A stretch of DNA of 45,914 nt from assembly GCA_030633565.1 (NCBI GenBank), contig DAOVSH010000002.1:1-45914 (forward strand). The letters are read 5' to 3'. Made by a program: the position numbers and the translations under genes. The notes beneath the pieces are model-generated. The model saw only the letters and a list, made by a program, of their open reading frames with translations, made no database searches and was not told the origin of the DNA. The stretch comes from Candidatus Cloacimonadota bacterium. Lineage in GTDB: Bacteria; Hydrothermota; E44-bin80. Positions 1-16,585 of the stretch are shown here, in pieces. Position 1 is the stretch's first letter. Each line of letters opens with the position of its first letter.

Positions 1-49
1 TCACATGGTAAAATGCTCCAGGATATTCTATTCTCGGTTTCCTCGCCAT
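1..49 (-). CDS. Y1 (IS200-like / COG1943 RayT-type) transposase. Only the first 16 codons are visible; the gene runs off the left edge.
   Basis: Minus-strand ATG at 49-47 with AGGAG (complement of 54-58) just upstream. It reads MARKPRIEYPGAFYHV and then leaves the window. The MAR.PRIE..GA.YHV N-terminus is typical of Y1_Tnp-family transposases. With only 16 codons seen, the call is tentative. Confidence 0.45.
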   Translation of the reverse strand, partial: MARKPRIEYPGAFYHV

Positions 50-130
50 ATATCTCCTATACCAAATTTATACCAATCTGTCAATCATAAATTACAGATT
101 CCAGCCTGACCCCAGTCTGTCACAGTGTGT

Positions 131-1162
131 CTAGGCTCCCGTATCGGCGGTGTCGTTGACTAGAACGATTCGGTAGCGTGCCTTGTTCGCCTTCACCTTC
201 CGAATCGCTTCGTTTACCTCCGTCATGGGCATCAACTCCACCTTGGGCACGATGCCGTGCGCATGTGCGAATGAGAGCATCTCCCGCATTGTGGCCCGGT
301 TGCCGAGGAAGGAACCGGTGATCGACAGTTGGTGCGTCACGAGGTCGGTCGAATTGAGCGCCACGTCTGGAAAGCCGAGAAGGACCAGCCTCCCATTTTT
401 TTTCAAGGTGTTCAGCAGCGCCTCCCAATTGATCTTGCCGTGGGCGGTGCATAGAAGCAGGTCGAAGCCGAACACAACCTGCCGCAAGCTGGTCTGGTCG
501 TCCGAAACGATGAAGTGGTCTGCGCCGAAGGCAAGCGCCTGCTCCTTCTTCTCTGGAGAGGAAGAAATGGCGGTGACTTCGTAGTCGAGGGCGCGGGCGA
601 ACTGTAATGCGAGGTGGCCCAGCCCTCCCACACCGATGATGCCGATTTTCTGCGCGGGTTGCGCGGCGTACGATCGGAGCGGGGAGTAAACCGTGATCCC
701 GGCGCACACGAGCACCGCGGCCACCTCAGAGGGCATGGTGTCAGGCAGCGGGTAGGCGAAGCGGCTATCCACAAGGACAGAGGACGAGAAGCCGCCATAG
801 GGGACCCACGTTCCCGACGAGACAATGTCCAGGCAGAGCTGCTCTTCGCCCTGCAAGCACCACTCACATTGCATGCAAGAACGGCCCTGCCAACCGATGC
901 CGACCCGGTCCCCTTCCTTCAGGCCGGATGCCGCGCGGCCCACAGCCGACACGTACCCAACGATCTCGTGACCGGGGACAAAGGGAAAGGTAGTTATTCC
1001 GTAGTAGTCGTTGATGGCGTGGATGTCGGTATGGCACACACCGCAGTGCGTGACCGAGACCCGGACATCATGCTCCCCTAGTTTGGGTGGCTCGTAGGTG
1101 AATGGCTCGAGCGGCTGTCCCACCGCTCTCGCTGCGTATCCCAAGACCCTCGAAGAAGACAT
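131..1162 (-). CDS. NAD(P)-dependent zinc alcohol dehydrogenase (MDR family, cinnamyl-alcohol-dehydrogenase/YahK-like)
   Basis: 343-aa ORF with catalytic-zinc motifs (CGVCHTD, GHEIVGYV), a structural-zinc Cys cluster (CMQCEWCLQGEEQLC) and a Rossmann motif (IGIIGVGGLGH). GGAGG RBS upstream. It is strikingly GC-rich compared with the rest of the window. Confidence 0.9.
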   Translation of the reverse strand: MSSSRVLGYAARAVGQPLEPFTYEPPKLGEHDVRVSVTHCGVCHTDIHAINDYYGITTFPFVPGHEIVGYVSAVGRAASGLKEGDRVGIGWQGRSCMQCEWCLQGEEQLCLDIVSSGTWVPYGGFSSSVLVDSRFAYPLPDTMPSEVAAVLVCAGITVYSPLRSYAAQPAQKIGIIGVGGLGHLALQFARALDYEVTAISSSPEKKEQALAFGADHFIVSDDQTSLRQVVFGFDLLLCTAHGKINWEALLNTLKKNGRLVLLGFPDVALNSTDLVTHQLSITGSFLGNRATMREMLSFAHAHGIVPKVELMPMTEVNEAIRKVKANKARYRIVLVNDTADTGA

Positions 1163-1945: not shown

Positions 1946-2046
1946 ATTCTCCCCCATCAAGGGGGAGAAAATTGAAAGGGATTTCTCCCCCATCAAGGGG
2001 GAGAAAATTGAGAGGTATTTCTCCCGCATCAAGGAGGAGAAAATTT
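1946..2046. repeat. Three tandem units of about 36 nt, each containing an 8-bp perfect palindrome (TCTCCCCC-ATCAA-GGGGGAGA)
   Basis: Copies lie at 1946-1980, 1981-2016 and 2017-2046. The third is degenerate (TCTCCCGC..GGAGGAGA) and encodes the last codons and the stop of the upstream CDS. Confidence 0.85.
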
Positions 2047-3072
2047 ATTAGTTATTTTCTTCAGTTTCTCAAATCCAACCATTCTTATTAACACAAAACC
2101 ACCAATAATTACGGAAATATAGAAGGTAAAAAACCTCCAGAGAAGCACATACACCCCGAGAAGTTCCTTTGGACAAATTAAAGCAAAAACAGAAAAACCT
2201 CCTAACTCGGCAATTCCACTTGCTCCCGGCGTAGGAATAAAAACAAGAAGATATGTAAGAACCAATTGCAGTATTGCAGCTTTCACTATAGGAACCGGAA
2301 CACCTAGACCATAGAGCAAGCACGGAGCTATTAAAAAATAGATCCCCATGGAGATAATGGTAAGAAGGAAAGATAAAAGGGTCTTCCATTTACCTACTTT
2401 AAAAAATAATCCCATACTTTTCTTAAAATTAGAAACCTCATTGAGAGTTCGATCGACAAATCTGCGCGGTCTATCACTCTTTATTATTTTTATCTTTCTA
2501 AGAAAATCCCCAAATTTGTGAAGTACTTTTCTAACCACTTCTGTTTTAAAGAGAATGAGTAAAAGAAGGATAATTGCTATTAAGTAAAAGAAAAAGAGGT
2601 AATTTAGAATGGATTTTAATACCTGTGCAGTAGAAATAATATGATAGTATGAGATTATTCCCGGGAGTGCAACAAACACAACCCCCAGACCAAGAACTGC
2701 CCTGAAAAGGATAACAGCTGTTCCCTCGCCTATGTTAAAACCCTCACGCTTAAGAATATATACCTGTAGAGGAATTCCTCCAGATTGAAACGGTGTTACT
2801 GCACCAAGAAATAAGCCCCCCATAGTAAATTCTATACTGCTTTTAAATGATATAAATCTTCCAAGAGCCCAGGTAAGAACCTGAAGTCTTAAAAAATCAA
2901 GATATAAATGAAGTAGTGCTAAGAACAAAGAAAGTAAAAGAAACAGGGGAACCATCTGCCCAAGGGCTATGTATGTACCCTTATTAACGGTAAAAACCAG
3001 GACACCTATTATCGCAATTATTGTTATAATCAGGAAAATCCTTAATCCTCTTATTATATCTTTCTTTTCCAT
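2029..3072 (-). CDS. Flippase-like / lysylphosphatidylglycerol-synthase-TM (UPF0104) family membrane protein
   Basis: 347-aa polytopic protein with PTPGASGIAELGG and LWRFFTFYI motifs typical of the family. Confidence 0.8.
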   Translation of the reverse strand: MEKKDIIRGLRIFLIITIIAIIGVLVFTVNKGTYIALGQMVPLFLLLSLFLALLHLYLDFLRLQVLTWALGRFISFKSSIEFTMGGLFLGAVTPFQSGGIPLQVYILKREGFNIGEGTAVILFRAVLGLGVVFVALPGIISYYHIISTAQVLKSILNYLFFFYLIAIILLLLILFKTEVVRKVLHKFGDFLRKIKIIKSDRPRRFVDRTLNEVSNFKKSMGLFFKVGKWKTLLSFLLTIISMGIYFLIAPCLLYGLGVPVPIVKAAILQLVLTYLLVFIPTPGASGIAELGGFSVFALICPKELLGVYVLLWRFFTFYISVIIGGFVLIRMVGFEKLKKITNKFSPP

Positions 3073-3090
3073 TCTCTTAAAACTTTTTTC

Positions 3091-4152
3091 CTACCGTTTT
3101 CTCCGCACGCTTTTCTTTTTATATTTCTCTATTTCTTCTTCCTCTCCCCTCTGAAGCATCCGTATAATAACAAATCCTCCAATTGCTGCTCCAATATAGA
3201 ATGTGAAAAATCTCCACAGAACAACATAAACACCGAGGAGGTGCACCGGACTTATACGTTTAAAAAGTGATACAAAAGCAGCCTCTGATACCCCACTTGC
3301 TCCTGGCGTTGGAACAAAAAAGAGTAAAAACTTAAGGATGAGCTGAAGATAAATCGTTTCAAGTATGGGTGGATGTTCACCAAGTCCAAGCAACATTATC
3401 GGTGCAATAAGAAATAGAGAAATATATGAAATAATGGTTACAAAAAAAGCGAGTAGGAGCTTTAGTTTCTGTCTGCTAAAATAGGCTCGTAAGCTTTTTC
3501 TAAAATCCTCTACTTCAACGAACAATCTTCTAAAGAGACGCAGTAATCTCTTTGTTTTCACAATCCTTCTTCTCTTTAAGAAAAAGTAAAAACGGTACAA
3601 GACTTTCTTAAAGATTTTTGGATTTAGAATCAATATGATAAGGAGGAAAATCCCAATTCCGTAAATAATGAAAAGATATCTCATAAGTGCTTGTGTTACT
3701 TTACCTGTTAGTAATCCTTTATAGTAAAAGAATATTAACGGCACAACAAAAATGAAAATGAAGAGCTCGAGTATCCCCCTAAACAGAAGAATTACACTTC
3801 CTTTTCCAATAGAAATATCTTCTTTCTTCAGAATGTATAATTGAACGGGAAGTCCACCCGTCTGGAACGGTGTAACAGCAGCGAGGAAAAGCCCTGATGT
3901 AATAACTGAAATTGCAGTTTTGATACTAATCCGTTTCCCGAGTGCTGAACTAAGTATCTGGACTCTGAGCCCGTCCATAGTGATATACAAACCCCAGAGA
4001 ACAAAACATAAAGCCAGATAAATAATTTTAAAATCTTTCAGTGATGCCCATGTGCGCTTATCAAGCGTCAGAGTCATAATAACAATAATGGTCAAAACCG
4101 TTATTATTAAAAATACACGCAATCCTATATTAACCTTTCTTCTTAATGTCAA
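3091..4152 (-). CDS. Flippase-like (UPF0104) family membrane protein, tandem paralogue
   Basis: 353 aa. It shares PTPGASGVSEAAF and LWRFFTFYI with the downstream paralogue. The TTG start at 4152 overlaps the lpxK stop. Confidence 0.8.
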   Translation of the reverse strand: MTLRRKVNIGLRVFLIITVLTIIVIMTLTLDKRTWASLKDFKIIYLALCFVLWGLYITMDGLRVQILSSALGKRISIKTAISVITSGLFLAAVTPFQTGGLPVQLYILKKEDISIGKGSVILLFRGILELFIFIFVVPLIFFYYKGLLTGKVTQALMRYLFIIYGIGIFLLIILILNPKIFKKVLYRFYFFLKRRRIVKTKRLLRLFRRLFVEVEDFRKSLRAYFSRQKLKLLLAFFVTIISYISLFLIAPIMLLGLGEHPPILETIYLQLILKFLLFFVPTPGASGVSEAAFVSLFKRISPVHLLGVYVVLWRFFTFYIGAAIGGFVIIRMLQRGEEEEIEKYKKKSVRRKR

Positions 4153-5201
4153 ATCAACTCCTTTTCTTTGAGTAACGATTTAAATCTCTTCTCATTCTCT
4201 AAAGAAAGTTCTATCGGTAGGGAGTAAAGCGGTACAGGCAATTTAGTAGCATAATCTTTAATAGAATATAAATCCTTCTCTGTGGTAACAATCGCATCAA
4301 TTGTATGTTCATCAACAAGTCTTTTTATTCTTTTAATATCTCTCATTGAATAACTATGATGGTCTAAATAGCTCTCAGAGTGGATTACATTTAGACCCGA
4401 CGACTTCAATGTTAAAAGAAATGACTTATTATTTCCAATCGACGAGATAGAAAGTATTCTTTTTCTTTTGAGGTTGGACAGGTTAACAGTTTCATTTTCA
4501 GGAATTTTCACAAAAGACAAAGGATTATGAAAAGATAAGAAGAGAGGAATAGTACTACTGTATCTTCTCACTAATCTTTCAATTCTTCTAATCTGATTAT
4601 CCTTAGCCTGATTACAGCGCGTGATGACAACTATATCTGCTCTTCTTATCGCATCCAATGGTTCTCTCAATTTCCCTGCTGGAAGAATCATGGAATCCAT
4701 AAAATTATCACTTGCATCAAGCAGGAGAATATCCACATCTCTTTCTATTGAAAATGATTGAAATCCATCATCAAGTATTATAATATCTGGTTCATATTTT
4801 TCAATTGCATAGGACAATCCCTCTTTTTTATCCCGTGAAACAACAACAGGAACCGCAGTCCTTTTTCCTATTAACCAGGGTTCATCCCCTGATTCTATTT
4901 CATCACCTTTATCCCGAATGTCAACAAGCCTGTTCTTTCCTTTTCGTTTATATCCTCTGCTCACAACCACAATCTTCTTATCAGCTCGTTTCAAAAAATT
5001 CACAAGGAAGATTACAAAAGGTGTTTTACCTGTACCTCCAACAGTTAAGTTCCCGACACTCACTATCTTCTTAGAAAATCCTTTTTGCTTAATAATTCTA
5101 TATCTGTAAGCGGCTTTGTGTATATTTTGCAGAAACTGATAAAGGTAGGATATGGGAATAAGCAGGAAATAAAAAACTCTATAGAGTTGATGTATATTCA
5201 T
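4149..5201 (-). CDS. lpxK: Tetraacyldisaccharide 4'-kinase
   Basis: 350 aa. N-terminal TM followed by the VGNLTVGGTGKTP P-loop characteristic of LpxK. It sits directly downstream of waaA. Confidence 0.9.
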   Translation of the reverse strand: MNIHQLYRVFYFLLIPISYLYQFLQNIHKAAYRYRIIKQKGFSKKIVSVGNLTVGGTGKTPFVIFLVNFLKRADKKIVVVSRGYKRKGKNRLVDIRDKGDEIESGDEPWLIGKRTAVPVVVSRDKKEGLSYAIEKYEPDIIILDDGFQSFSIERDVDILLLDASDNFMDSMILPAGKLREPLDAIRRADIVVITRCNQAKDNQIRRIERLVRRYSSTIPLFLSFHNPLSFVKIPENETVNLSNLKRKRILSISSIGNNKSFLLTLKSSGLNVIHSESYLDHHSYSMRDIKRIKRLVDEHTIDAIVTTEKDLYSIKDYATKLPVPLYSLPIELSLENEKRFKSLLKEKELI

Positions 5202-5206
5202 TACAC

Positions 5207-6466
5207 TTAAATGATAGCATTTTCTTCAAGGGATTTTATATAATTATCCACAACTCCTCTTTTCTGCTTAAGGTAGTTTCTTGAATTCTCACCCATCTTT
5301 TTTCTTCGAGATGGATGATTTAATAAATATTTGATTACCTCCTTAAAATCCTTTCCATTTTTAATACTAATTGCACTATCTGATTCAAGGAGTTCCTTTG
5401 CAGTCTCCCTTGTATTATTAATATATGGACCAAAAAGAATAGGAACACCGAAATAAGCTGGCTCTATAAGATTGTGTCCGCCGTAAGGAAGAAGGGTTCC
5501 ACCTACAAAAGCAATATCAGCAACAGAATAGACACTCCTCAATTCACCCATAGTATCGAGTATCAGGACAGTTTCTCCATTGTACGAAGATTTTTCAGTC
5601 CTCTTCATGTATCTTAAATTTTCTCTCCTTAAAATGTTTTCAATTTCACTTACCCTATTCAAATGCCTTGGAGCAATAATAAGAAAGGTTTCATTTAGTT
5701 CCTCTTTTACCGACTTAAAAACCTTTATAATAATTTCCTCTTCTCCTTTCCTTACACTTCCAGCAACAATAACTGATTTATGTGAAGGTATTGAAAGAAG
5801 TTCTTTTGTAAGAATTTCAGGATGAGAATTATCGGATTTCAATGAACCTGTCACTCTAACCTTCGTTTTACTCATTCCAAGCCTCAAAAACTTATGCGCT
5901 TCACCATTACTTTGAGAAAAAATAACATCAATTTGATTAAATAGCTGCTGACTCATGTAGCGCAATCGGAGATATCTCTTAAAGGTCTTATCTGATAATC
6001 TTCCATTTGCTAAAACAATCTTCACTCCTCTTCTTCTGCACAAAAAAATCAATGTTGGCCAGATCTCTGTCTCTATTAAAATTAACGTGTCAGGATTTAT
6101 TCTCCTGATAGCATTTCTAATTAAAGGAAAGAAATCAAAAGGAAGAAGCACGAAATTATTTATACCTTTTATAATCTTCATTGCTCTTTCTTTGCCACTT
6201 ACAGTCATTGAGGAAATAACAATTCTTTTCTTTGGGAATTTCTCTCTTATTCGCATTGCTAATTGACTTGCTGCCGTTATCTCTCCAAGCGAAGCACCAT
6301 GAATCCAGATACACTTCTCATCCTGTGAGGAATTAAACGAATACACACCCATTCTTTCTCTCCATTCAAAGGAAGAAGTTATTCTTTTAAAAATAGTATA
6401 CGGAAACATTATAATATAAACAACTCCCCAGAGCAAATTGTAGAAAAACATGAATATTACATTCAT
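5207..6466 (-). CDS. waaA: 3-deoxy-D-manno-octulosonic acid (Kdo) transferase
   Basis: 419 aa with an N-terminal TM, a WIHGASLGE motif and a C-terminal GT-B half typical of WaaA/KdtA. Confidence 0.9.
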   Translation of the reverse strand: MNVIFMFFYNLLWGVVYIIMFPYTIFKRITSSFEWRERMGVYSFNSSQDEKCIWIHGASLGEITAASQLAMRIREKFPKKRIVISSMTVSGKERAMKIIKGINNFVLLPFDFFPLIRNAIRRINPDTLILIETEIWPTLIFLCRRRGVKIVLANGRLSDKTFKRYLRLRYMSQQLFNQIDVIFSQSNGEAHKFLRLGMSKTKVRVTGSLKSDNSHPEILTKELLSIPSHKSVIVAGSVRKGEEEIIIKVFKSVKEELNETFLIIAPRHLNRVSEIENILRRENLRYMKRTEKSSYNGETVLILDTMGELRSVYSVADIAFVGGTLLPYGGHNLIEPAYFGVPILFGPYINNTRETAKELLESDSAISIKNGKDFKEVIKYLLNHPSRRKKMGENSRNYLKQKRGVVDNYIKSLEENAII

Positions 6467-7119
6467 CTAAAACTCTCTGCTATCCTGTTTAATTCATTGA
6501 GTTCCTGTGTAAGAGAATCCCTAATAACATTATCTTCCTCACTCTTCTTGAGTATATGAACATTTCCAAAAACTATGGATATCCTGCTCATTGGAAGAGG
6601 AAACATGAAACGGTCCCAGCTGGAAAAGTACTTTGCACACTTTGCTCCAATTCCTATAGGAACTATCGGTCTTCCTGAAAACTTTGCTATTGCGATTGCA
6701 CCACCCGAGAAATGATATGGGGGACCTTTCGGACCATCGGGAGTAATCGCAAGGTCAAACTGCTTTATTGCTTTCACCATCAATCGACATGCCTTCATTC
6801 CTCCACTTGTTGAAGAACCCCTTATAACAGTGAAGCCAAGAAACTTCAGAGCACGAGCGATTAATTCACCATCCCGATGCCGAGAAACCAGTATATTCAT
6901 TCTACTTGTTCTTTGCAGATAAAGAAGGGGGAAAAATTTCTGATGCCAGAAAACAAATATACAATTCCCCCCAGATTTTGCTTTCGTGTATGAATGCATG
7001 TTTTTATAAGAATACCGCAGGGTTAACCCTATCGACCGCACAATGAAAATGATCAAAAACGGCAGAATAAAAATTGAAATATTTTTAAACACTTTTTTGA
7101 ATGCACTCTTTCTCTTCAT
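6463..7119 (-). CDS. DUF374-domain (lysophospholipid-acyltransferase-like) protein
   Basis: 218 aa with an N-terminal TM and a PDGPKGP motif typical of DUF374. ATGA overlap with waaA and a 35-nt overlap with the lpxB 3' end. Confidence 0.75.
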   Translation of the reverse strand: MKRKSAFKKVFKNISIFILPFLIIFIVRSIGLTLRYSYKNMHSYTKAKSGGNCIFVFWHQKFFPLLYLQRTSRMNILVSRHRDGELIARALKFLGFTVIRGSSTSGGMKACRLMVKAIKQFDLAITPDGPKGPPYHFSGGAIAIAKFSGRPIVPIGIGAKCAKYFSSWDRFMFPLPMSRISIVFGNVHILKKSEEDNVIRDSLTQELNELNRIAESFR

Positions 7120-8239
7120 CTTTTCCTCTACACTCTTTCACAATTATTTCTGCTGCATTCGGTGCCGCACCCTTCTGACCGAGCATTTTTTTAACTTCAT
7201 TGAGTTCAACTTTAATCTTATCAGCATAACCTTCATCATCAAGTATTTTAAGGATCTCTTCTGATATTTGATTAATCTTTATAGCGTACTGAATATATTC
7301 CCGTATAATCCTCTTTCCTCTTACGATGTTAACAAGACTAATGTACGGAAGTTTTATTAATTGTTTTACAATAAGATACGTTACAATCGAAACTTTATAG
7401 ACAATAACACCCGGGGTTCCTAACAGGGCAGTCTCAAGGGTTACAGTACCTGATGCTGCAATTACAGCATCGGCAACATTGATACCATCAGAGGTTTCAT
7501 CATGAATAACTTCAACATCCTGTTCTTCAGGTAATAAACCTTCTATCTCATCAGAAATAGTAGGAAGAATAAACTGCACATCTTTCCTTCTCTTTTTTAT
7601 CTCCTTTGAAATATCAAACATAACGGGTAATAGCCTCTTTATTTCACCCTCTCTACTTCCGGGAAGCAGGGCAATTATAGGTTTCTTTGAATCCAATTTG
7701 TGCTCTAAGCAAAATTCTACCTTACTCCTTTTCAGCCTCATCTCATCAAGAATTGGATGCCCGACAAAATCCGTCCTAATTCCATACGAAGAGAGAATCT
7801 TCTTCTCAAAAGGAAATATCACAAGTGCATGATCAACATTTTTATACAAACTGCGCAATCTCCAACCGCCCCATGCCCATACCTGCGGGGTAATATAGTA
7901 AATAACCTTTATTCCTAAGTCTTTTGCAAATTCAGCAAGTCGGAGATTAAACCCGGGAGAATCAATAAGAATAAGAGCGTCTGGTTTCTCAGATTTCATC
8001 TTTTTAATAAGCGTACGTAATATTCTTTTAATACTTTTCACCTTCTTAAGAACTTCCCAAAATCCTATTACAGAAAGATTCTCGATGGGGAAGAAAAGCT
8101 GTACGCCTTCATCCTCCATCCACTTTCCTCCAATACCAAAAAACTTACTATCTGGAAGTATTTTTTTTATCTCTTTTATAAGAAAAGAGGCATGTAAATC
8201 ACCCGATGCCTCACCCGTAATGACGAAAAACTTAACCAT
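7085..8239 (-). CDS. lpxB: Lipid-A-disaccharide synthase
   Basis: 384 aa. The N-terminal VITGEASGDLH motif and the overall GT19 layout match LpxB. Confidence 0.9.
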   Translation of the reverse strand: MVKFFVITGEASGDLHASFLIKEIKKILPDSKFFGIGGKWMEDEGVQLFFPIENLSVIGFWEVLKKVKSIKRILRTLIKKMKSEKPDALILIDSPGFNLRLAEFAKDLGIKVIYYITPQVWAWGGWRLRSLYKNVDHALVIFPFEKKILSSYGIRTDFVGHPILDEMRLKRSKVEFCLEHKLDSKKPIIALLPGSREGEIKRLLPVMFDISKEIKKRRKDVQFILPTISDEIEGLLPEEQDVEVIHDETSDGINVADAVIAASGTVTLETALLGTPGVIVYKVSIVTYLIVKQLIKLPYISLVNIVRGKRIIREYIQYAIKINQISEEILKILDDEGYADKIKVELNEVKKMLGQKGAAPNAAEIIVKECRGKDEEKECIQKSV

Positions 8240-8381: not shown

Positions 8382-8410
8382 TTGACAAATAGACAAAATT
8401 ATACTATATT
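8382..8410 (+). promoter_or_regulatory. sigma70-type promoter of the riboflavin operon
   Basis: TTGACA (8382-8387), 17-nt spacer, TATATT (8405-8410). The predicted TSS near 8417 coincides with the 5' end of riboswitch helix P1. Confidence 0.5.
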
Positions 8411-12503: not shown

Positions 12504-13232
12504 ATGAGAATTGGAATTTTATCTGATATACATAGTAATCTCGAAGCACTCAATGCCGTTATTGAGTCTGCAAAGGAACAAAATGTTGACGAGTACATCT
12601 GCCTTGGGGATATCGTAGGATACGGTGCAAATCCAAAAGAATGCATTGATATAATAAAAGGTCTTACTACCAAAATTGTCGCAGGTAATCATGACTACGG
12701 TGTTTGTGGTCTTACTAATATCTCATATTTCAACGATGTTGCTAAAAAAGCAATCGAATGGACCAAAGAAACTATTACACAGGATTATATTGATTTTCTG
12801 AAATCACTTCCTTTAGTTCTGGAGTACAAAGAAGGTCTTTTCGTTCATTCTACACCGTCCTCCCCGGATTCATGGAATTATATCTTGAGTATGTACGATG
12901 CAAAAAGAGAATTTAAATTTTTTGATCAAAATTTTTGTTTTATAGGACACTCCCACCAGCCAGTCACCTTTTCAATCAACTCTGAAGAAGAGATCGGCGT
13001 ATCTATTGATGATACCTTAATTTGCGTTGATAGTAAACGGTACATAGCAAATTCTGGTAGTGTTGGTCAACCCCGTGATGGCAATCCAAAAGCATCCTAT
13101 CTTATTTATGATATTGAGAAAAAGATCATTTCCTTCTCAAGGGTACTGTATGACATTAGAAAATGTCAGACCAAAATCCTTAATGCAGGACTTCCACCAT
13201 TTCTTGCACAAAGGTTAGAGATTGGAAGATGA
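12504..13232 (+). CDS. Metallophosphoesterase (calcineurin-like) family protein
   Basis: 242 aa with DIHSN, GDIVGYG, GNHD and GHSH metal-binding motifs. AGGAGG RBS upstream. Confidence 0.85.
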   Translation: MRIGILSDIHSNLEALNAVIESAKEQNVDEYICLGDIVGYGANPKECIDIIKGLTTKIVAGNHDYGVCGLTNISYFNDVAKKAIEWTKETITQDYIDFLKSLPLVLEYKEGLFVHSTPSSPDSWNYILSMYDAKREFKFFDQNFCFIGHSHQPVTFSINSEEEIGVSIDDTLICVDSKRYIANSGSVGQPRDGNPKASYLIYDIEKKIISFSRVLYDIRKCQTKILNAGLPPFLAQRLEIGR

Positions 13233-13948
13233 TGATAACTTGTCCACAATGCGGTGCGGATATTACAATTCAACCAAGAAGTCTCCAACTCGTATGCCCA
13301 TTCTGTGAAGCACCCCTTATATTAAAAAAAGAACCGTTACTTGAATCCTACAAACTCGAACCAACATGTGAAGAAACCCCGGCAACTTTGATTGCAGAAC
13401 AGCATCTTGTAGAAAAAGGCAGAGAGGAAAAAATCGTAAAAAGAGAACTACACTATCTTCCGTTTTATAGATTTTTATCCGAAAAGAACGGAAAATTCGT
13501 TGAGAACGTCTTTTCTGCTCTTAGTTCTCCTCCGTTTTTCCTCTTTTCCATTCCATCCGGTTCAATTGTCACATTAAAAGAGAACGATAAAGATCTTCTA
13601 ATGAAACCTGAAAAGAGCATTTCAGAAATCCTTGAATCAATGAAGAAACAAAAAACGTTATGCCTTGATGAAATGCTTCTTTTACATATCCCATTCTGGA
13701 AGATTACAATCTCATCTGACGAAATAATATGGATTGATGCCGTTCAGGGAAAAATTCACTCCTCAACTGTTCTCGAAAAACAAAAAAGAACAGGAAGATT
13801 CCTGAAAATTACATTAACAACCCTTTTAGCTTTATTATTAATTGAAGGAATATCAGTACCTCAAGTTGCTTTACGATTACTTCTCCAGTTTGTAACTGCA
13901 GGGTTCTTTCTTTTCTTTATAAGGAAATATTTCAGCGATGAGTATTAG
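13229..13948 (+). CDS. Zinc-ribbon protein with C-terminal membrane anchor; uncharacterised (paralogue 1)
   Basis: 239 aa. N-terminal CPQCGA-x12-CPFC ribbon, PFY/PFW strand motifs, and a hydrophobic C-terminus (LLALLLIEGI...AGFFLFFI). ATGA overlap with the phosphoesterase gene. Confidence 0.7.
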   Translation: MMITCPQCGADITIQPRSLQLVCPFCEAPLILKKEPLLESYKLEPTCEETPATLIAEQHLVEKGREEKIVKRELHYLPFYRFLSEKNGKFVENVFSALSSPPFFLFSIPSGSIVTLKENDKDLLMKPEKSISEILESMKKQKTLCLDEMLLLHIPFWKITISSDEIIWIDAVQGKIHSSTVLEKQKRTGRFLKITLTTLLALLLIEGISVPQVALRLLLQFVTAGFFLFFIRKYFSDEY

Positions 13949-14891
13949 AGTCATTTCCTATCTCTGCCCAAAATGCGGGGCTGGAGTAAAGTTTTCTGAG
14001 GAAGATAGAGTTATAAAATGTTTTCACTGCGGGACGAATTTTCTCCCGACCCACTCAGAGGGGATCGAAAGATACTATTTCAAACCACAGATAAAGAATC
14101 CTCAAAGGAAAATAGAAAGTTTACTGAGAAAAAATGGTTTTAATAAATCGGATTACAGAATCATTGACATTGATAAATTATTCATTCCCGTATGGAGGGG
14201 AAGTGGGCAGGTGACAGGCTGGATTGCAGGATTATCACCCATAAAGATAATTGTTTATACTGAAACAATTACAGTACCAAATGGACGACAGATCACGGTA
14301 AAAAGAAGAAGAAGAGAAGGTGGAATTCCCTTAAAAAAATTAATGAGAATTGAAAAAGAAATTCTATTTAATGCAGTAAAATTTCAAGATATCAGATGGC
14401 GTAACGAAGAAGTTCTAAATGCTGATTATGAAAAATTATTCAGGGTTTATGACGAGAAAAAAATGGTAATATGGGGAAAGATAATAACCCCTGATGTCTC
14501 ACCACAAACTAAAAAAAAAGAGATAAATTCAAAATTCATTAATTCATCTGTGTCACTATATAACGGTTACGATCCACTACGGCACAGATTAAAAGTTATT
14601 GGACAACGAATTTTCCTCTACTATTTTCCTGTCATACTCATCAAGGTAAAATTACAAAAGAAGATAGTTTCCCTCACGGTAAATGGGCTTTCCGGCAAAA
14701 TTACTTCAAATACCCTGTTGAAAAAAGGAAATGCTCCGAAAAGAAAAAAGTCACTATTATTGGACATATTAACCATTCTCACTTCATCTATTTTATTTAC
14801 GTTCCTTATACATACGAACAGTCTCTTTTTAAAACAATTAGGATTTGTTATTTCAATCATCATCATTGTCTATATCTGGATTAAAAAATGA
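13938..14891 (+). CDS. Zinc-ribbon protein with C-terminal membrane anchor; uncharacterised (paralogue 2)
   Basis: 317 aa. CPKCGA-x12-CFHC ribbon, an IPVW motif, and two C-terminal hydrophobic segments. 11-nt overlap with the previous gene. Confidence 0.7.
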   Translation: MSIRVISYLCPKCGAGVKFSEEDRVIKCFHCGTNFLPTHSEGIERYYFKPQIKNPQRKIESLLRKNGFNKSDYRIIDIDKLFIPVWRGSGQVTGWIAGLSPIKIIVYTETITVPNGRQITVKRRRREGGIPLKKLMRIEKEILFNAVKFQDIRWRNEEVLNADYEKLFRVYDEKKMVIWGKIITPDVSPQTKKKEINSKFINSSVSLYNGYDPLRHRLKVIGQRIFLYYFPVILIKVKLQKKIVSLTVNGLSGKITSNTLLKKGNAPKRKKSLLLDILTILTSSILFTFLIHTNSLFLKQLGFVISIIIIVYIWIKK

Positions 14892-15610
14892 AAATATTCA
14901 ACCTTCTTCCACTACAGTGTATTCATTGCGGTGCACCTATCTCATCAGGATGTTCTGATATGGTTTATTTCTGTCAAAATTGCGGTTCAGGATTAGAATT
15001 TAACGGAAAAAATTTTGAGTTAGTTGAAGTCTCCTATGCAAGTCCTCTCTTAGAAAAAGAGACAGAGCCTGAACTTTTTCTCCCATTTTGGTCATTTCAT
15101 CTTGATATTTCTATTAAAGGAAAAGAGGCATATCTTCCCCTCCTTTTTAGAGAAAATTTTCTCAGAACAGAAGATAGACTTTTCACAGATGAAACTTTCA
15201 TAGAGGAAATACTAAAAAAATGGAAAAATAAGGAAATTAAAGGAGAAAGTGATTTTATAATATATGTCCCTTCTTTCCCTACAACAGGAGCTTATGCATA
15301 CTCTTCAGGACTCGGGAATAAATTTACCAAAGCACAACCCCATCTCAGTTTCTATGAAAAAAATAAAAGGATGGAATCCTGTATCTACAATTCAAAAGAT
15401 GCTCTTGCAATTGCTGAAGATGAATATATCTCTCTTCAATCTGCGGTAATCCCTAATCTTCTCGCACTTGACCTCTCGTTTAATTTGAAGGATAAAAAAG
15501 TTATAGGTATTCCATATATTAGAAAGGAAAAAGGGATTTTCCTTAACCAAATAATCGGTGAAATAATTCTATCAAGCGCACTGAAAAAGACAGTAGGCAG
15601 TATGGAGTAA
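14888..15610 (+). CDS. Zinc-ribbon protein, soluble; uncharacterised (paralogue 3)
   Basis: 240 aa. CIHCGA-x12-CQNC ribbon and an LFLPFWSF motif, with no TM segment. ATGA overlap with the previous gene. Confidence 0.7.
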   Translation: MKIFNLLPLQCIHCGAPISSGCSDMVYFCQNCGSGLEFNGKNFELVEVSYASPLLEKETEPELFLPFWSFHLDISIKGKEAYLPLLFRENFLRTEDRLFTDETFIEEILKKWKNKEIKGESDFIIYVPSFPTTGAYAYSSGLGNKFTKAQPHLSFYEKNKRMESCIYNSKDALAIAEDEYISLQSAVIPNLLALDLSFNLKDKKVIGIPYIRKEKGIFLNQIIGEIILSSALKKTVGSME

Positions 15611-15624: not shown

Positions 15625-15657
15625 AGGAATAAACAAATGTGCAAACAAAAAATCTGT

Positions 15658-15768
15658 GCAATTATTGTTGCAGGCGGGAAAGGTAGAAGAATGGGAGGTA
15701 AGATACCAAAACAATTTATAAAAATCGATACCATCCCCATAATTATCAAAACGCTTCTTCCCTTTGAG
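15658..15768 (+). repeat. 111-bp direct repeat, copy 1 (ispD codons ~8-44)
   Basis: Identical to 15920-16030 except for one synonymous A/G difference (15687 vs 15949). The offset is exactly 262 nt. Confidence 0.9.
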
Positions 15769-15775
15769 GATGTAA

Positions 15776-15799
15776 GTAGCGTTGGGGCTTGTCCCCAAC
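15776..15799 (+). repeat. REP-like element core GTAGCGTTGGGGCTTGTCCCCAAC (copy A)
   Basis: A GTAG tetranucleotide followed by a 7-bp-stem hairpin (GTTGGGG/CCCCAAC). An identical 24-mer occurs on the minus strand at 24864-24887 and 28695-28718. Confidence 0.8.
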
Positions 15800-15898
15800 A
15801 GACAGAAACGGAGAATGGGTGAAACTGAGTGCGAAACAAGTTTCGCTACTCCAGAAAAAAGGACAGAATGTATAATTTCTTAAGCGTGAAATAAAATA

Positions 15899-16585
15899 AT
15901 GGCTAAGCAAGTTATTTCTGCAATTATTGTTGCAGGCGGGAAAGGTAGGAGAATGGGAGGTAAGATACCAAAACAATTTATAAAAATCGATACCATCCCC
16001 ATAATTATCAAAACGCTTCTTCCCTTTGAGAAATTGAAGGTGATTAACAACATTATCCTCATCCTTCCCAAAAAATGGAAACAGAAAGGCTTTAATTTAC
16101 TCAGAAAGTATCATATTAATAAGGTTATTGAAATAGCAGATGCTGGAAGAACCAGGCAGGTATCAGTCTATAATGGATTGGTTTCGCTTAGAAAATACAA
16201 TCCTGACATCGTTGTTATACACGATGTAGCACGTCCTTTTGTCACTGAAAAGTTAATTAAGGCTTCATGTGAAGGTGCTAAAAAACACGGTGCAACCAGT
16301 ACAGCAATTACTATTCGGGATACAATAGTTGAAAAAAGAAAAATGAAACTTCTCGACAGAAAAAATGTCGTACGGTTACAGACACCACAAGCATTCAGGT
16401 TTCCCTTGATACTGGATGCACACTTACATGCAAAAAAAAGAAAAAAATGTGATTATCCGGACGACTCAAGTCTTCTACTATCTTTTGGGGGAAAAACCTT
16501 TCTTATTGATGGAGACAAAAGAAATATAAAAATTACTGACAAAGAAGACCTTCAGCTTGCACATGCAATTGCAAAAACACTCTAA
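15899..16585 (+). CDS. ispD: 2-C-methyl-D-erythritol 4-phosphate cytidylyltransferase
   Basis: 228 aa with the IIVAGGKGRRMG nucleotide-binding motif and typical IspD length and layout. Confidence 0.88.
   Translation: MAKQVISAIIVAGGKGRRMGGKIPKQFIKIDTIPIIIKTLLPFEKLKVINNIILILPKKWKQKGFNLLRKYHINKVIEIADAGRTRQVSVYNGLVSLRKYNPDIVVIHDVARPFVTEKLIKASCEGAKKHGATSTAITIRDTIVEKRKMKLLDRKNVVRLQTPQAFRFPLILDAHLHAKKRKKCDYPDDSSLLLSFGGKTFLIDGDKRNIKITDKEDLQLAHAIAKTL
15920..16030 (+). repeat. 111-bp direct repeat, copy 2 (inside intact ispD)
   Basis: See copy 1 at 15658-15768. Confidence 0.9.

Follow-up and report, generated by a model that had tools for sequence, protein, structure and literature searches.

The window analyzed here is a 45,914-nucleotide (nt) stretch of DNA from a Candidatus Cloacimonadota bacterium (contig DAOVSH010000002.1 of assembly GCA_030633565.1), and the subject of this analysis is a run of four co-directional genes within it that encodes a metallophosphoesterase followed by three zinc-ribbon proteins, ZnR-A, ZnR-B, and ZnR-C (hereafter A, B, and C). 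The four genes are chained by start/stop overlaps, namely an ATGA at 13229-13232 (phosphoesterase/A), 11 nt at 13938-13948 (A/B), and a second ATGA at 14888-14891 (B/C), all of which had been proposed in a first-pass annotation of the sequence and were confirmed on the open reading frames (ORFs). They form part of a collinear, co-directional string in the window, ribD-ribE-ribBA-ribH-nusB-phosphoesterase-A-B-C-ispD. Comparison with distant genomes separates this run into two parts: the three ribbon genes, two of which encode remote homologs of the YdjG (SamG) type of Bacillus subtilis membrane proteins, recur together as a cassette in other lineages, and the phosphoesterase does not. The features of the locus and of the corresponding genes elsewhere are collected in Table 1.

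Table 1. Genes, ribbons, and membrane hairpins of the locus, with the corresponding genes of other lineages (designated by L numbers); aa, amino acids; C4, four-cysteine ribbon
Feature	Position (nt)	Strand	Description
Metallophosphoesterase	12504-13232	+	242-aa ORF; ApaH/PrpE/YfcE-like, calcineurin superfamily
ZnR-A (A)	13229-13948	+	239-aa ORF
A ribbon, C4	13241-13306	+	C5, C8, C23, C26; CPQCGA-x12-CPFC; N-terminal
A transmembrane hairpin	about 13799-13924	+	aa about 191-232; hydropathy; invariant G207, Q220
ZnR-B (B)	13938-14891	+	317-aa ORF
B ribbon, C4	13965-14030	+	C10, C13, C28, C31; CPKCGA-x12-CFHC
B transmembrane hairpin	about 14751-14885	+	aa about 272-316; hydropathy; invariant Q300
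ZnR-C (C)	14888-15610	+	240-aa ORF
C ribbon, C4	14918-14983	+	C11, C14, C29, C32; CIHCGA-x12-CQNC
Trio in L013/L014			A-B-C, 220-296-233 aa
Trio in L017			A-B-C, 241-330-279 aa
Trio in L022			A-B-C, 193-339-237 aa
Trio in L023			A-B-C, 252-363-253 aa
h160 gene in L013	4824-5306		directly upstream of Band_7_1-zinc-ribbon gene
h160 gene in L015	5267-5770		directly upstream of Band_7_1-zinc-ribbon gene

A, B, and C open with the same ribbon spacing, CxxCGA-x12-CxxC, as the first-pass annotation had pointed out, and the ribbon cysteines are invariant or nearly so in the 17-23 homologs that were aligned for each protein. The Y-x-x-(x)-P segments and the hydrophobic h-h-P-F/V-W/Y strands described there are likewise present, and their P, F, W, and Y residues fall in invariant columns of the homolog alignments (P78, F79, Y80, P155, F156, and W157 in A; P84, W86, F230, and P231 in B; P66, F67, W68, P209, and Y210 in C). 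Between its ribbon and its transmembrane hairpin, A has a short SamG/YdjG-like cytoplasmic core, and B has a long one with an invariant GGxPLKKL loop and beta-hairpin insertions that are large relative to A. C is more conserved than either A or B, with 60-79% identity across the clade, and continues after its ribbon into an alpha/beta domain in which the strands LPFW, YVPSFPTTG, and IGIPY are conserved. Hydropathy places two adjacent C-terminal transmembrane helices in each of A and B and none in C or in the phosphoesterase, which bears out the earlier picture of two membrane anchors and one soluble protein. The AlphaFold 2 model of B also shows two C-terminal helices (H273-291 and H296-316), and basic residues flank the B hairpin on both sides, consistent with the N-in/C-in topology that we infer for the membrane hairpins.

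When the ribbon and transmembrane parts were removed, the cores of A and B still aligned with each other (hhalign 97%, E 5e-11, 147 columns), and by this profile comparison the two proteins are true paralogs over their whole cytoplasmic part. The secure similarity of C to A and B is confined to the ribbon; its core gives a colinear but weak alignment with that of B (hhalign 53%), and C is probably a further, more diverged paralog. The proposal that all three are divergent paralogs thus holds for A and B and is just probable for C.

The distribution of the three genes was followed at increasing evolutionary distance. Word-indexed searches returned about 20 clusters per protein, with homologs 45-79% identical plus one 98-99% near-duplicate for each, and the few clusters with a source label were from Cloacimonadota, Candidatus Cloacimonas, or "WOR-3"; similarly, all five loci returned by a GTDB scan with C were Cloacimonadota-level relatives. 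A profile of B, run against 1.84 billion representative proteins, gave 185 matches at E<=1e-3, which fall into three classes: (i) B-like proteins of 280-365 amino acids with C-terminal transmembrane helices; (ii) proteins of about 437-565 amino acids, of which the seven that were inspected (477-565 amino acids) consist of a B-like N-terminal half, a second ribbon, and a C-like C-terminal half, without transmembrane helices; and (iii) Firmicutes-type proteins with two N-terminal ribbons, i.e., P0200, P0182 (Lachnospiraceae), P0143, P0133, P0193, and P0129. At least four other lineages carry A, B, and C in the same order, with a B only 19-27% identical to that of the window; neighboring genes of the trio overlap in three of these (L013, L022, and L023) and stand close together in L017. 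Family hidden Markov models match the corresponding genes of these trios (in L013, A at 1.7e-17, B at 8.6e-29, and C at 4.2e-28). Orthologs of A are found in L013, L017, L022, and L023 and among L024-L095, and orthologs of C lie 3' of B in L013, L016, L017, L022, and L023, the cassette of L016 being interrupted by a contig end. With the order A-B-C recurring in at least four distant lineages, these comparisons identify A-B-C as a conserved three-gene cassette, and the idea of a conserved, translationally coupled unit is upheld for the three ribbon genes.

The proteins of the second class bear on how the products work together. The fusion encoded in L015 matches both B (3.5e-15) and C (2.9e-5) of the window by tblastn, the C-terminal halves of the fusions align with the window C, and the ribbon spacing CxxC-x14-CxxC is common to A, B, C, their distant homologs, the C-halves of the fusions, and the second ribbon of P0200. 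B-C fusions provide Rosetta-stone evidence that B and C act together, and the membrane-tethered hetero-oligomer suggested by the first-pass annotation is rated plausible because B and C are fused in many genomes. From sequence evidence of this kind, we infer that A, B, and C form such a hetero-oligomer.

In other lineages the cassette has a recurrent neighbor. A protein with a Band_7_1 domain (PF13421) of the SPFH type and a C-terminal double zinc ribbon is encoded directly upstream of the cassette or the fusion in L013, L015, and L017 and 4.5 kb upstream in L018, and a gene combining Band_7_1 and DZR is also adjacent in L020 and L021, which are YdjG-type loci. As a reverse test, metagenomes were scanned with an alignment of this YdjI-like SPFH subfamily, from which 80 loci were kept and 64 were informative. 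The trio or the fusion was found directly downstream of the SPFH gene in 42 of the 64 (median gap, 16.5 bp), as a B-C fusion in 23 cases, as a complete A-B-C in 8, and as A and/or B cut by the contig end in 11; the other 22 informative loci have no trio or fusion gene. The YdjI/SamI-type SPFH gene is a conserved neighbor of A-B-C or of the B-C fusion in these lineages and, unlike in their cassettes, is not encoded in the window. In 56 of the 80 loci, the SPFH gene is preceded by a gene for h160, a conserved helical protein of 160-185 amino acids that has no counterpart in Pfam and that, in other phyla, is probably one more subunit of the SPFH/ribbon system.

A system with such an SPFH protein has been described in B. 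subtilis, where the sigma-W operon pspA-ydjGHI (renamed pspA-samGHI) encodes YdjG with a pair of zinc ribbons, an NTF2-like domain related to YpeB, and a transmembrane segment, YdjH with a TPM domain, and YdjI with a band-7 domain and a zinc ribbon (PMC11237479). Recruitment of PspA and of the soluble SPFH protein YdjI to the membrane depends on both YdjG and YdjH, and cells that lose ydjG or ydjH mislocalize wall synthesis when exposed to alkaline shock (PMC8581546). In a 2026 preprint, the proteins are renamed SamGHI, and SamG-SamH is proposed as a membrane stress sensor restrained by SamI (bioRxiv 10.64898/2026.02.06.704340). YdjG and YdjH serve in B. subtilis as membrane anchors of YdjI and PspA (PMC8581546; bioRxiv 10.64898/2026.02.06.704340). 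Two matches of the B profile in the whole library have this architecture or setting: P0200 (1.4e-4) has two ribbons, a core, and a transmembrane segment and is encoded between Band_7_1 and TPM_phosphatase genes, and P0133 (1.9e-6) lies with a 39%-identical paralog in a cluster that also encodes PspA_IM30, a Band_7_1 protein with ribbon, and a weak TPM protein (L021). The agreement of their architecture and context with the published description of pspA-ydjGHI links A and B of the window to the described system. A YdjG-type reference set (P0200, P0182, P0143, P0133, P0193, P0129, and P0201), picked by architecture and operon context and not via the B. subtilis protein, aligned by hhalign with the B family at 99.8% (E 1.8e-27, 292 columns), with the B core freed of ribbon and transmembrane parts at 98.3%, and with the A family at 98.5% (E 3e-15); with the C family, it aligned in the ribbon only. 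The ribbon of A and B corresponds to the second ribbon of this set. On these alignments, A and B are remote homologs of YdjG/SamG-type proteins as defined by the reference set.

The likeness to SamG/YdjG extends to three features: (i) N-terminal C4 ribbons, a cytoplasmic alpha+beta core, and a C-terminal membrane anchor in A and B; (ii) an operonic soluble SPFH partner with C-terminal zinc ribbons in the orthologous cassettes of other phyla; and (iii) paralogous duplication within one operon, which is also seen in the YdjG type (L021). The differences are equally clear. A and B carry a single ribbon where YdjG has two, and their anchor is a two-helix hairpin where one transmembrane segment has been described; three specialized genes, including the soluble C, or a B-C fusion take the place of one gene; an unannotated helical protein of ~160-185 amino acids precedes the SPFH gene in the loci of other phyla; and the sequence identity is too low for BLAST or curated models. 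Single-sequence tblastn, the sensitivity of which is limited, found no TPM partner (YdjH/SamH) or pspA beside the trio or fusion loci. TPM genes were seen only beside Firmicutes-type genes (L019/L020 and, weakly, L021), and a linked PspA was seen only in L021. The cassette represents a diverged form of the YdjG/SamG family with three subunits, for which no prior description was found in the literature searched, and it extends a known theme rather than being a categorically new system.

We consider it reasonably probable that A-B-C is a SamG/YdjG-superfamily cassette that serves as a sub-membrane platform for SPFH-type membrane-stress machinery. In such a platform, A and B would be held at the inner face of the membrane by their C-terminal hairpins, with the ribbon and the core in the cytoplasm, and the invariant glutamine at the start of the second transmembrane helix (Q220 in A, Q300 in B) could mediate contact between them. 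The soluble C would bind B, to which it is covalently fused in many lineages. The resulting ribbon-rich assembly would recruit or regulate a YdjI/SamI-like SPFH scaffold (Band_7_1 plus zinc ribbons) and, possibly, via this scaffold, PspA/ESCRT-III-type machinery, and would thereby contribute to membrane-stress sensing, maintenance, or repair. In the Cloacimonadota lineage, where the cassette lies inside a housekeeping string, the SPFH partner, if any, would be encoded elsewhere, and the phosphoesterase would be a neighbor acquired in this lineage. The proposal builds on the directly observed gene structure, A/B paralogy, cassette conservation, B-C fusion, YdjG-type homology, and SPFH linkage elsewhere; a membrane-stress function of the cassette is suggested by transfer from the genetics of B. 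subtilis.

Several results weigh against this proposal. Homologs of Band_7_1, h160, PspA, and TPM were not found by tblastn in the 46-kb window, which thus holds none of the operonic SPFH partner, TPM partner, or linked pspA of a SamGHI-type system, and none lies in the 7 kb on either side of the L022 and L023 cassettes; with no SPFH gene near it in these three places, the cassette can stand alone. Homology of the C core to the cores of A and B was not demonstrable at the hhalign score given above, and Foldseek searches of the PDB with the B and C models, which gave nothing below E 0.2, did not confirm the YpeB-related NTF2-like fold published for YdjG. An inexact version of the B. subtilis YdjG sequence, for which an identical database entry was not found, supports the link only informally and is taken as a lead: it matches P0182 (1e-69) and P0200 (1e-64) at 30-36% identity, and its termini agree with the primers printed in PMC8581546.

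The lack of an SPFH gene by the cassette in the window, L022, and L023 would be expected if, in this lineage, the trio were independent of SPFH and PspA and acted as an accessory of envelope biogenesis or division, e.g., by tying the production of lipid A, phospholipid, or peptidoglycan to the membrane's inner face. Genes of that kind are found near the cassette in several loci: lpxB-DUF374-kdtA-lpxK in the window and in L016/L022; Omp85, an acyltransferase, and CdsA in L023; mraZ, rsmH, ftsL, and a PBP in L015; PBP1 and OmpA in L013; and a MurJ-like flippase in L017. The mislocalized wall synthesis of B. subtilis upon ydjG or ydjH loss under alkaline shock (PMC8581546) could also be read in this way. 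However, the envelope neighbors vary by locus and are anecdotal, whereas the one tight linkage that repeats is that to the SPFH gene, in 42 of 64 loci, and we regard an SPFH-independent role as unlikely.

The late lipid A genes of the window (lpxB, DUF374, kdtA, and lpxK; 2029-8239, minus strand) lie a few kilobases from A-B-C and are accompanied by two tandem LPG_synthase_TM paralogs. Late lipid A genes also occur downstream of the cassette in L016 and L022, a lineage in which B is just 27% identical. This proximity may represent remnant synteny or an envelope-related association.

Curated families describe only a small part of the three proteins. Searches of Pfam, NCBIfam, PADLOC, and PHROGs with A, B, and C returned ribbon matches alone, all of them sub-threshold, and the same was true of Pfam for 17 diverse B homologs; PADLOC-DB gave only ribbon-only matches to B (8e-4 and 7e-3), there was no relevant PHROG, and PDB sequence-profile searches with the family alignments A1 and A2 matched ribbons alone. 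Generic ribbon families (Zn_ribbon_3, DZR, TFIIB, RPAB4, and S27e) share with A, B, and C a CxxC...CxxC knuckle pair of about 25 residues, but their scores are below the gathering thresholds and they say nothing on the core of roughly 150-230 residues. It could be argued from the weak resemblance, below threshold, to ribbon families of RNA polymerases and ribosomes, and from the automatic names of the homologs (RPC12/RpoP, S27E, DUF1610, TFIIB ribbon), that the ribbons bind nucleic acid and that the proteins are membrane-sequestered regulators of transcription or translation. Since the matches stay below the curated cut-offs and span only the 25-30-residue ribbon, since most of what is conserved in the proteins lies in the core domain and the membrane hairpin, and since the SPFH partner also carries ribbons, a hint that the ribbons mediate contacts between proteins, this role seems very unlikely.

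The AlphaFold 2 models reached a predicted local distance difference test score of 75.6 for B and 68.9 for C; that of B consists of modules of a helix and a long curved sheet. Foldseek searches of the PDB with both models gave nothing below E 0.2, YpeB (5boi) ranking 22nd (E 1.5) in the search with the undivided B model. The matches to aerolysin-type toxins, YpeB, and VPS26 were non-significant, and these were not used as fold relatives. The first-pass statement that no named family or described system has this composition therefore stands in that no Pfam, NCBIfam, PADLOC, or PHROG family or PDB fold covers the core; it does not stand for described systems, given that A and B are remote homologs of YdjG/SamG-type proteins and that their orthologs elsewhere lie beside an SPFH gene. 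Among viral models (BFVD), the B model matched two Klosneuvirinae proteins named "DnaJ-like subfamily C member 3" (Edafosvirus A0A3G4ZSZ8 and Yasminevirus A0A5K0UBJ7) with a Foldseek probability of 1.0, an E of about 1e-6, 265-299 columns, and a TM-score of about 0.3; on these model comparisons, giant viruses may encode proteins of the ribbon-plus-core fold.

The viral matches and the surroundings of one distant locus could be taken to indicate an anti-phage defense or mobile-element module. In L021 (421-7970), the PspA/Band_7_1/TPM cluster with its two YdjG-type paralogs (328 and 338 amino acids, 39% identical) has two HEPN-nucleotidyltransferase pairs interspersed in it, and a 404-amino-acid protein with a weak RNase H-like (RVT_3) match is encoded after it. 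Against such a function, PADLOC offered nothing past the ribbon-only match at 8e-4, no PHROG was relevant, and the cassette has a stable place in a housekeeping string with host-genome composition. We consider a defense role extremely unlikely, and the original view of a housekeeping or envelope setting rather than a defense island is supported by the stable string, the host-like composition, and the lack of a PADLOC system match.

The phosphoesterase itself is readily classified. It matches Pfam Metallophos_2 (1.5e-20, 74.2 bits, cut-off 27) and aligns end to end with the structural-genomics metallophosphoesterase 3rqz (3.2e-49), which together with the ApaH/PrpE/SapH-like enzymes (3qfm) is its closest known counterpart, and its metal-binding motifs are all retained (DxH [DIH], GD, GNHD, GHSH, and GSVGQPRD). 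This 3rqz-like enzyme has no conserved link to the cassette. All Cloacimonadota contigs found in the word-indexed searches are collinear over lpxB / ribD-ribE-ribBA-ribH-nusB-phosphoesterase-A-B-C-ispD / GAF-HD, and because the whole region is collinear in the clade, the linkage of phosphoesterase and trio there is uninformative on function. Outside the clade, no phosphoesterase homolog was found in the 91 loci L013-L103, each chosen for a trio, a fusion, a YdjG-type gene, or an SPFH gene. The four-gene module put forward by the first-pass annotation is thus not supported, with the phosphoesterase beside A only in the syntenic string of Cloacimonadota; of the neighborhood linkages examined, that of four genes is not conserved, and that of the three genes A-B-C is. 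The phosphoesterase is a lineage-specific neighbor and not a conserved part of the cassette. The idea that the enzyme is a Vps29-like component of a complex resembling retromer was also considered, but nothing supports it.

A functional tie within the clade could nevertheless be imagined, in which the phosphoesterase is the catalytic partner of the module, e.g., in place of YdjH/SamH, and dephosphorylates a protein or hydrolyzes a nucleotide signal at the membrane. The ATGA stop/start overlap is retained in all Cloacimonadota relatives, the catalytic motifs are all intact, and Firmicutes YdjG-type genes are followed by a TPM_phosphatase gene. However, the linkage is confined to one clade in which everything from ribD through GAF-HD is syntenic, no phosphoesterase homolog occurs in the 91 loci of other lineages, and the enzyme belongs to a widespread stand-alone family (3rqz) with a fold unrelated to TPM. 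A catalytic partnership is therefore improbable, and a replacement of the TPM "phosphatase" SamH by the phosphoesterase is speculation. The boldest combination would be a widespread, so far undescribed five-component membrane-surveillance system of A-B-C (or the B-C fusion), h160, and the YdjI-like SPFH protein, found in apparently mostly non-Firmicutes uncultured lineages and related to SamGHI but built differently, with a soluble C, which in Cloacimonadota was uncoupled from SPFH and rewired to an ApaH-like phosphoesterase as a SamH substitute; taken as a whole, this reading is unlikely.

SPFH/flotillin-type scaffolds and PspA/ESCRT-III proteins are universal membrane-maintenance machinery, and the tethering and control of soluble SPFH proteins is known from one Bacillus operon only. 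The present comparison places YdjG/SamG in a much larger zinc-ribbon superfamily, for the core of which Pfam and NCBIfam have no model and the members of which occur as a three-gene cassette or a two-domain fusion beside SPFH genes in numerous uncultured lineages. On this basis, the sensor/anchor part of the machinery can be compared across lineages by its conserved motifs, an intramembrane glutamine, and fusion evidence for subunit contacts. In addition, three "hypothetical" genes can now be annotated in Cloacimonadota and related candidate phyla, and an unsupported link of the trio to the neighboring phosphoesterase is corrected.

With regard to expression, the string from ribD to ispD is headed by an FMN riboswitch (RF00050, 8415-8533, 117.8 bits), and the best sigma-70-like promoter (8382-8410) lies immediately 5' of it. 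If the riboswitch attenuates transcription, nusB and the later genes need internal promoters. A terminator scan predicted no plus-strand terminator between 8200 and 16700, i.e., up to ispD, so that operon structure gives no ground for setting the phosphoesterase apart from the trio, or the trio apart from nusB or ispD. The phosphoesterase may be co-expressed with A-B-C, adjacency being its sole tie to the trio.

Two further features of the window were observed. The 5' end of ispD (15899-16585), the gene that follows C, is duplicated as a 141-nt direct repeat (91% identical, copies 262 nt apart) in the region 15628-16030, which also contains an ORF at 15637-15822. Copy 1 retains an ancestral-looking start codon region, as in the relative L005, and is followed by an insert of ~121 nt (15769-15889) with two hairpins, which gives the full-length ispD its new start; the fold of the insert is not significant (z -1.4). 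The duplication and insert are found in the same-species contigs L001 and L002 and are missing in L005 and L007. At the far end of the window (1-1162), the first ~1 kb has a G+C content of 58%, compared with about 36% in the remainder, and contains a minus-strand ORF (131-1162) for a zinc-dependent alcohol dehydrogenase; this G+C-rich end either was transferred recently or marks a chimeric end of the assembly.

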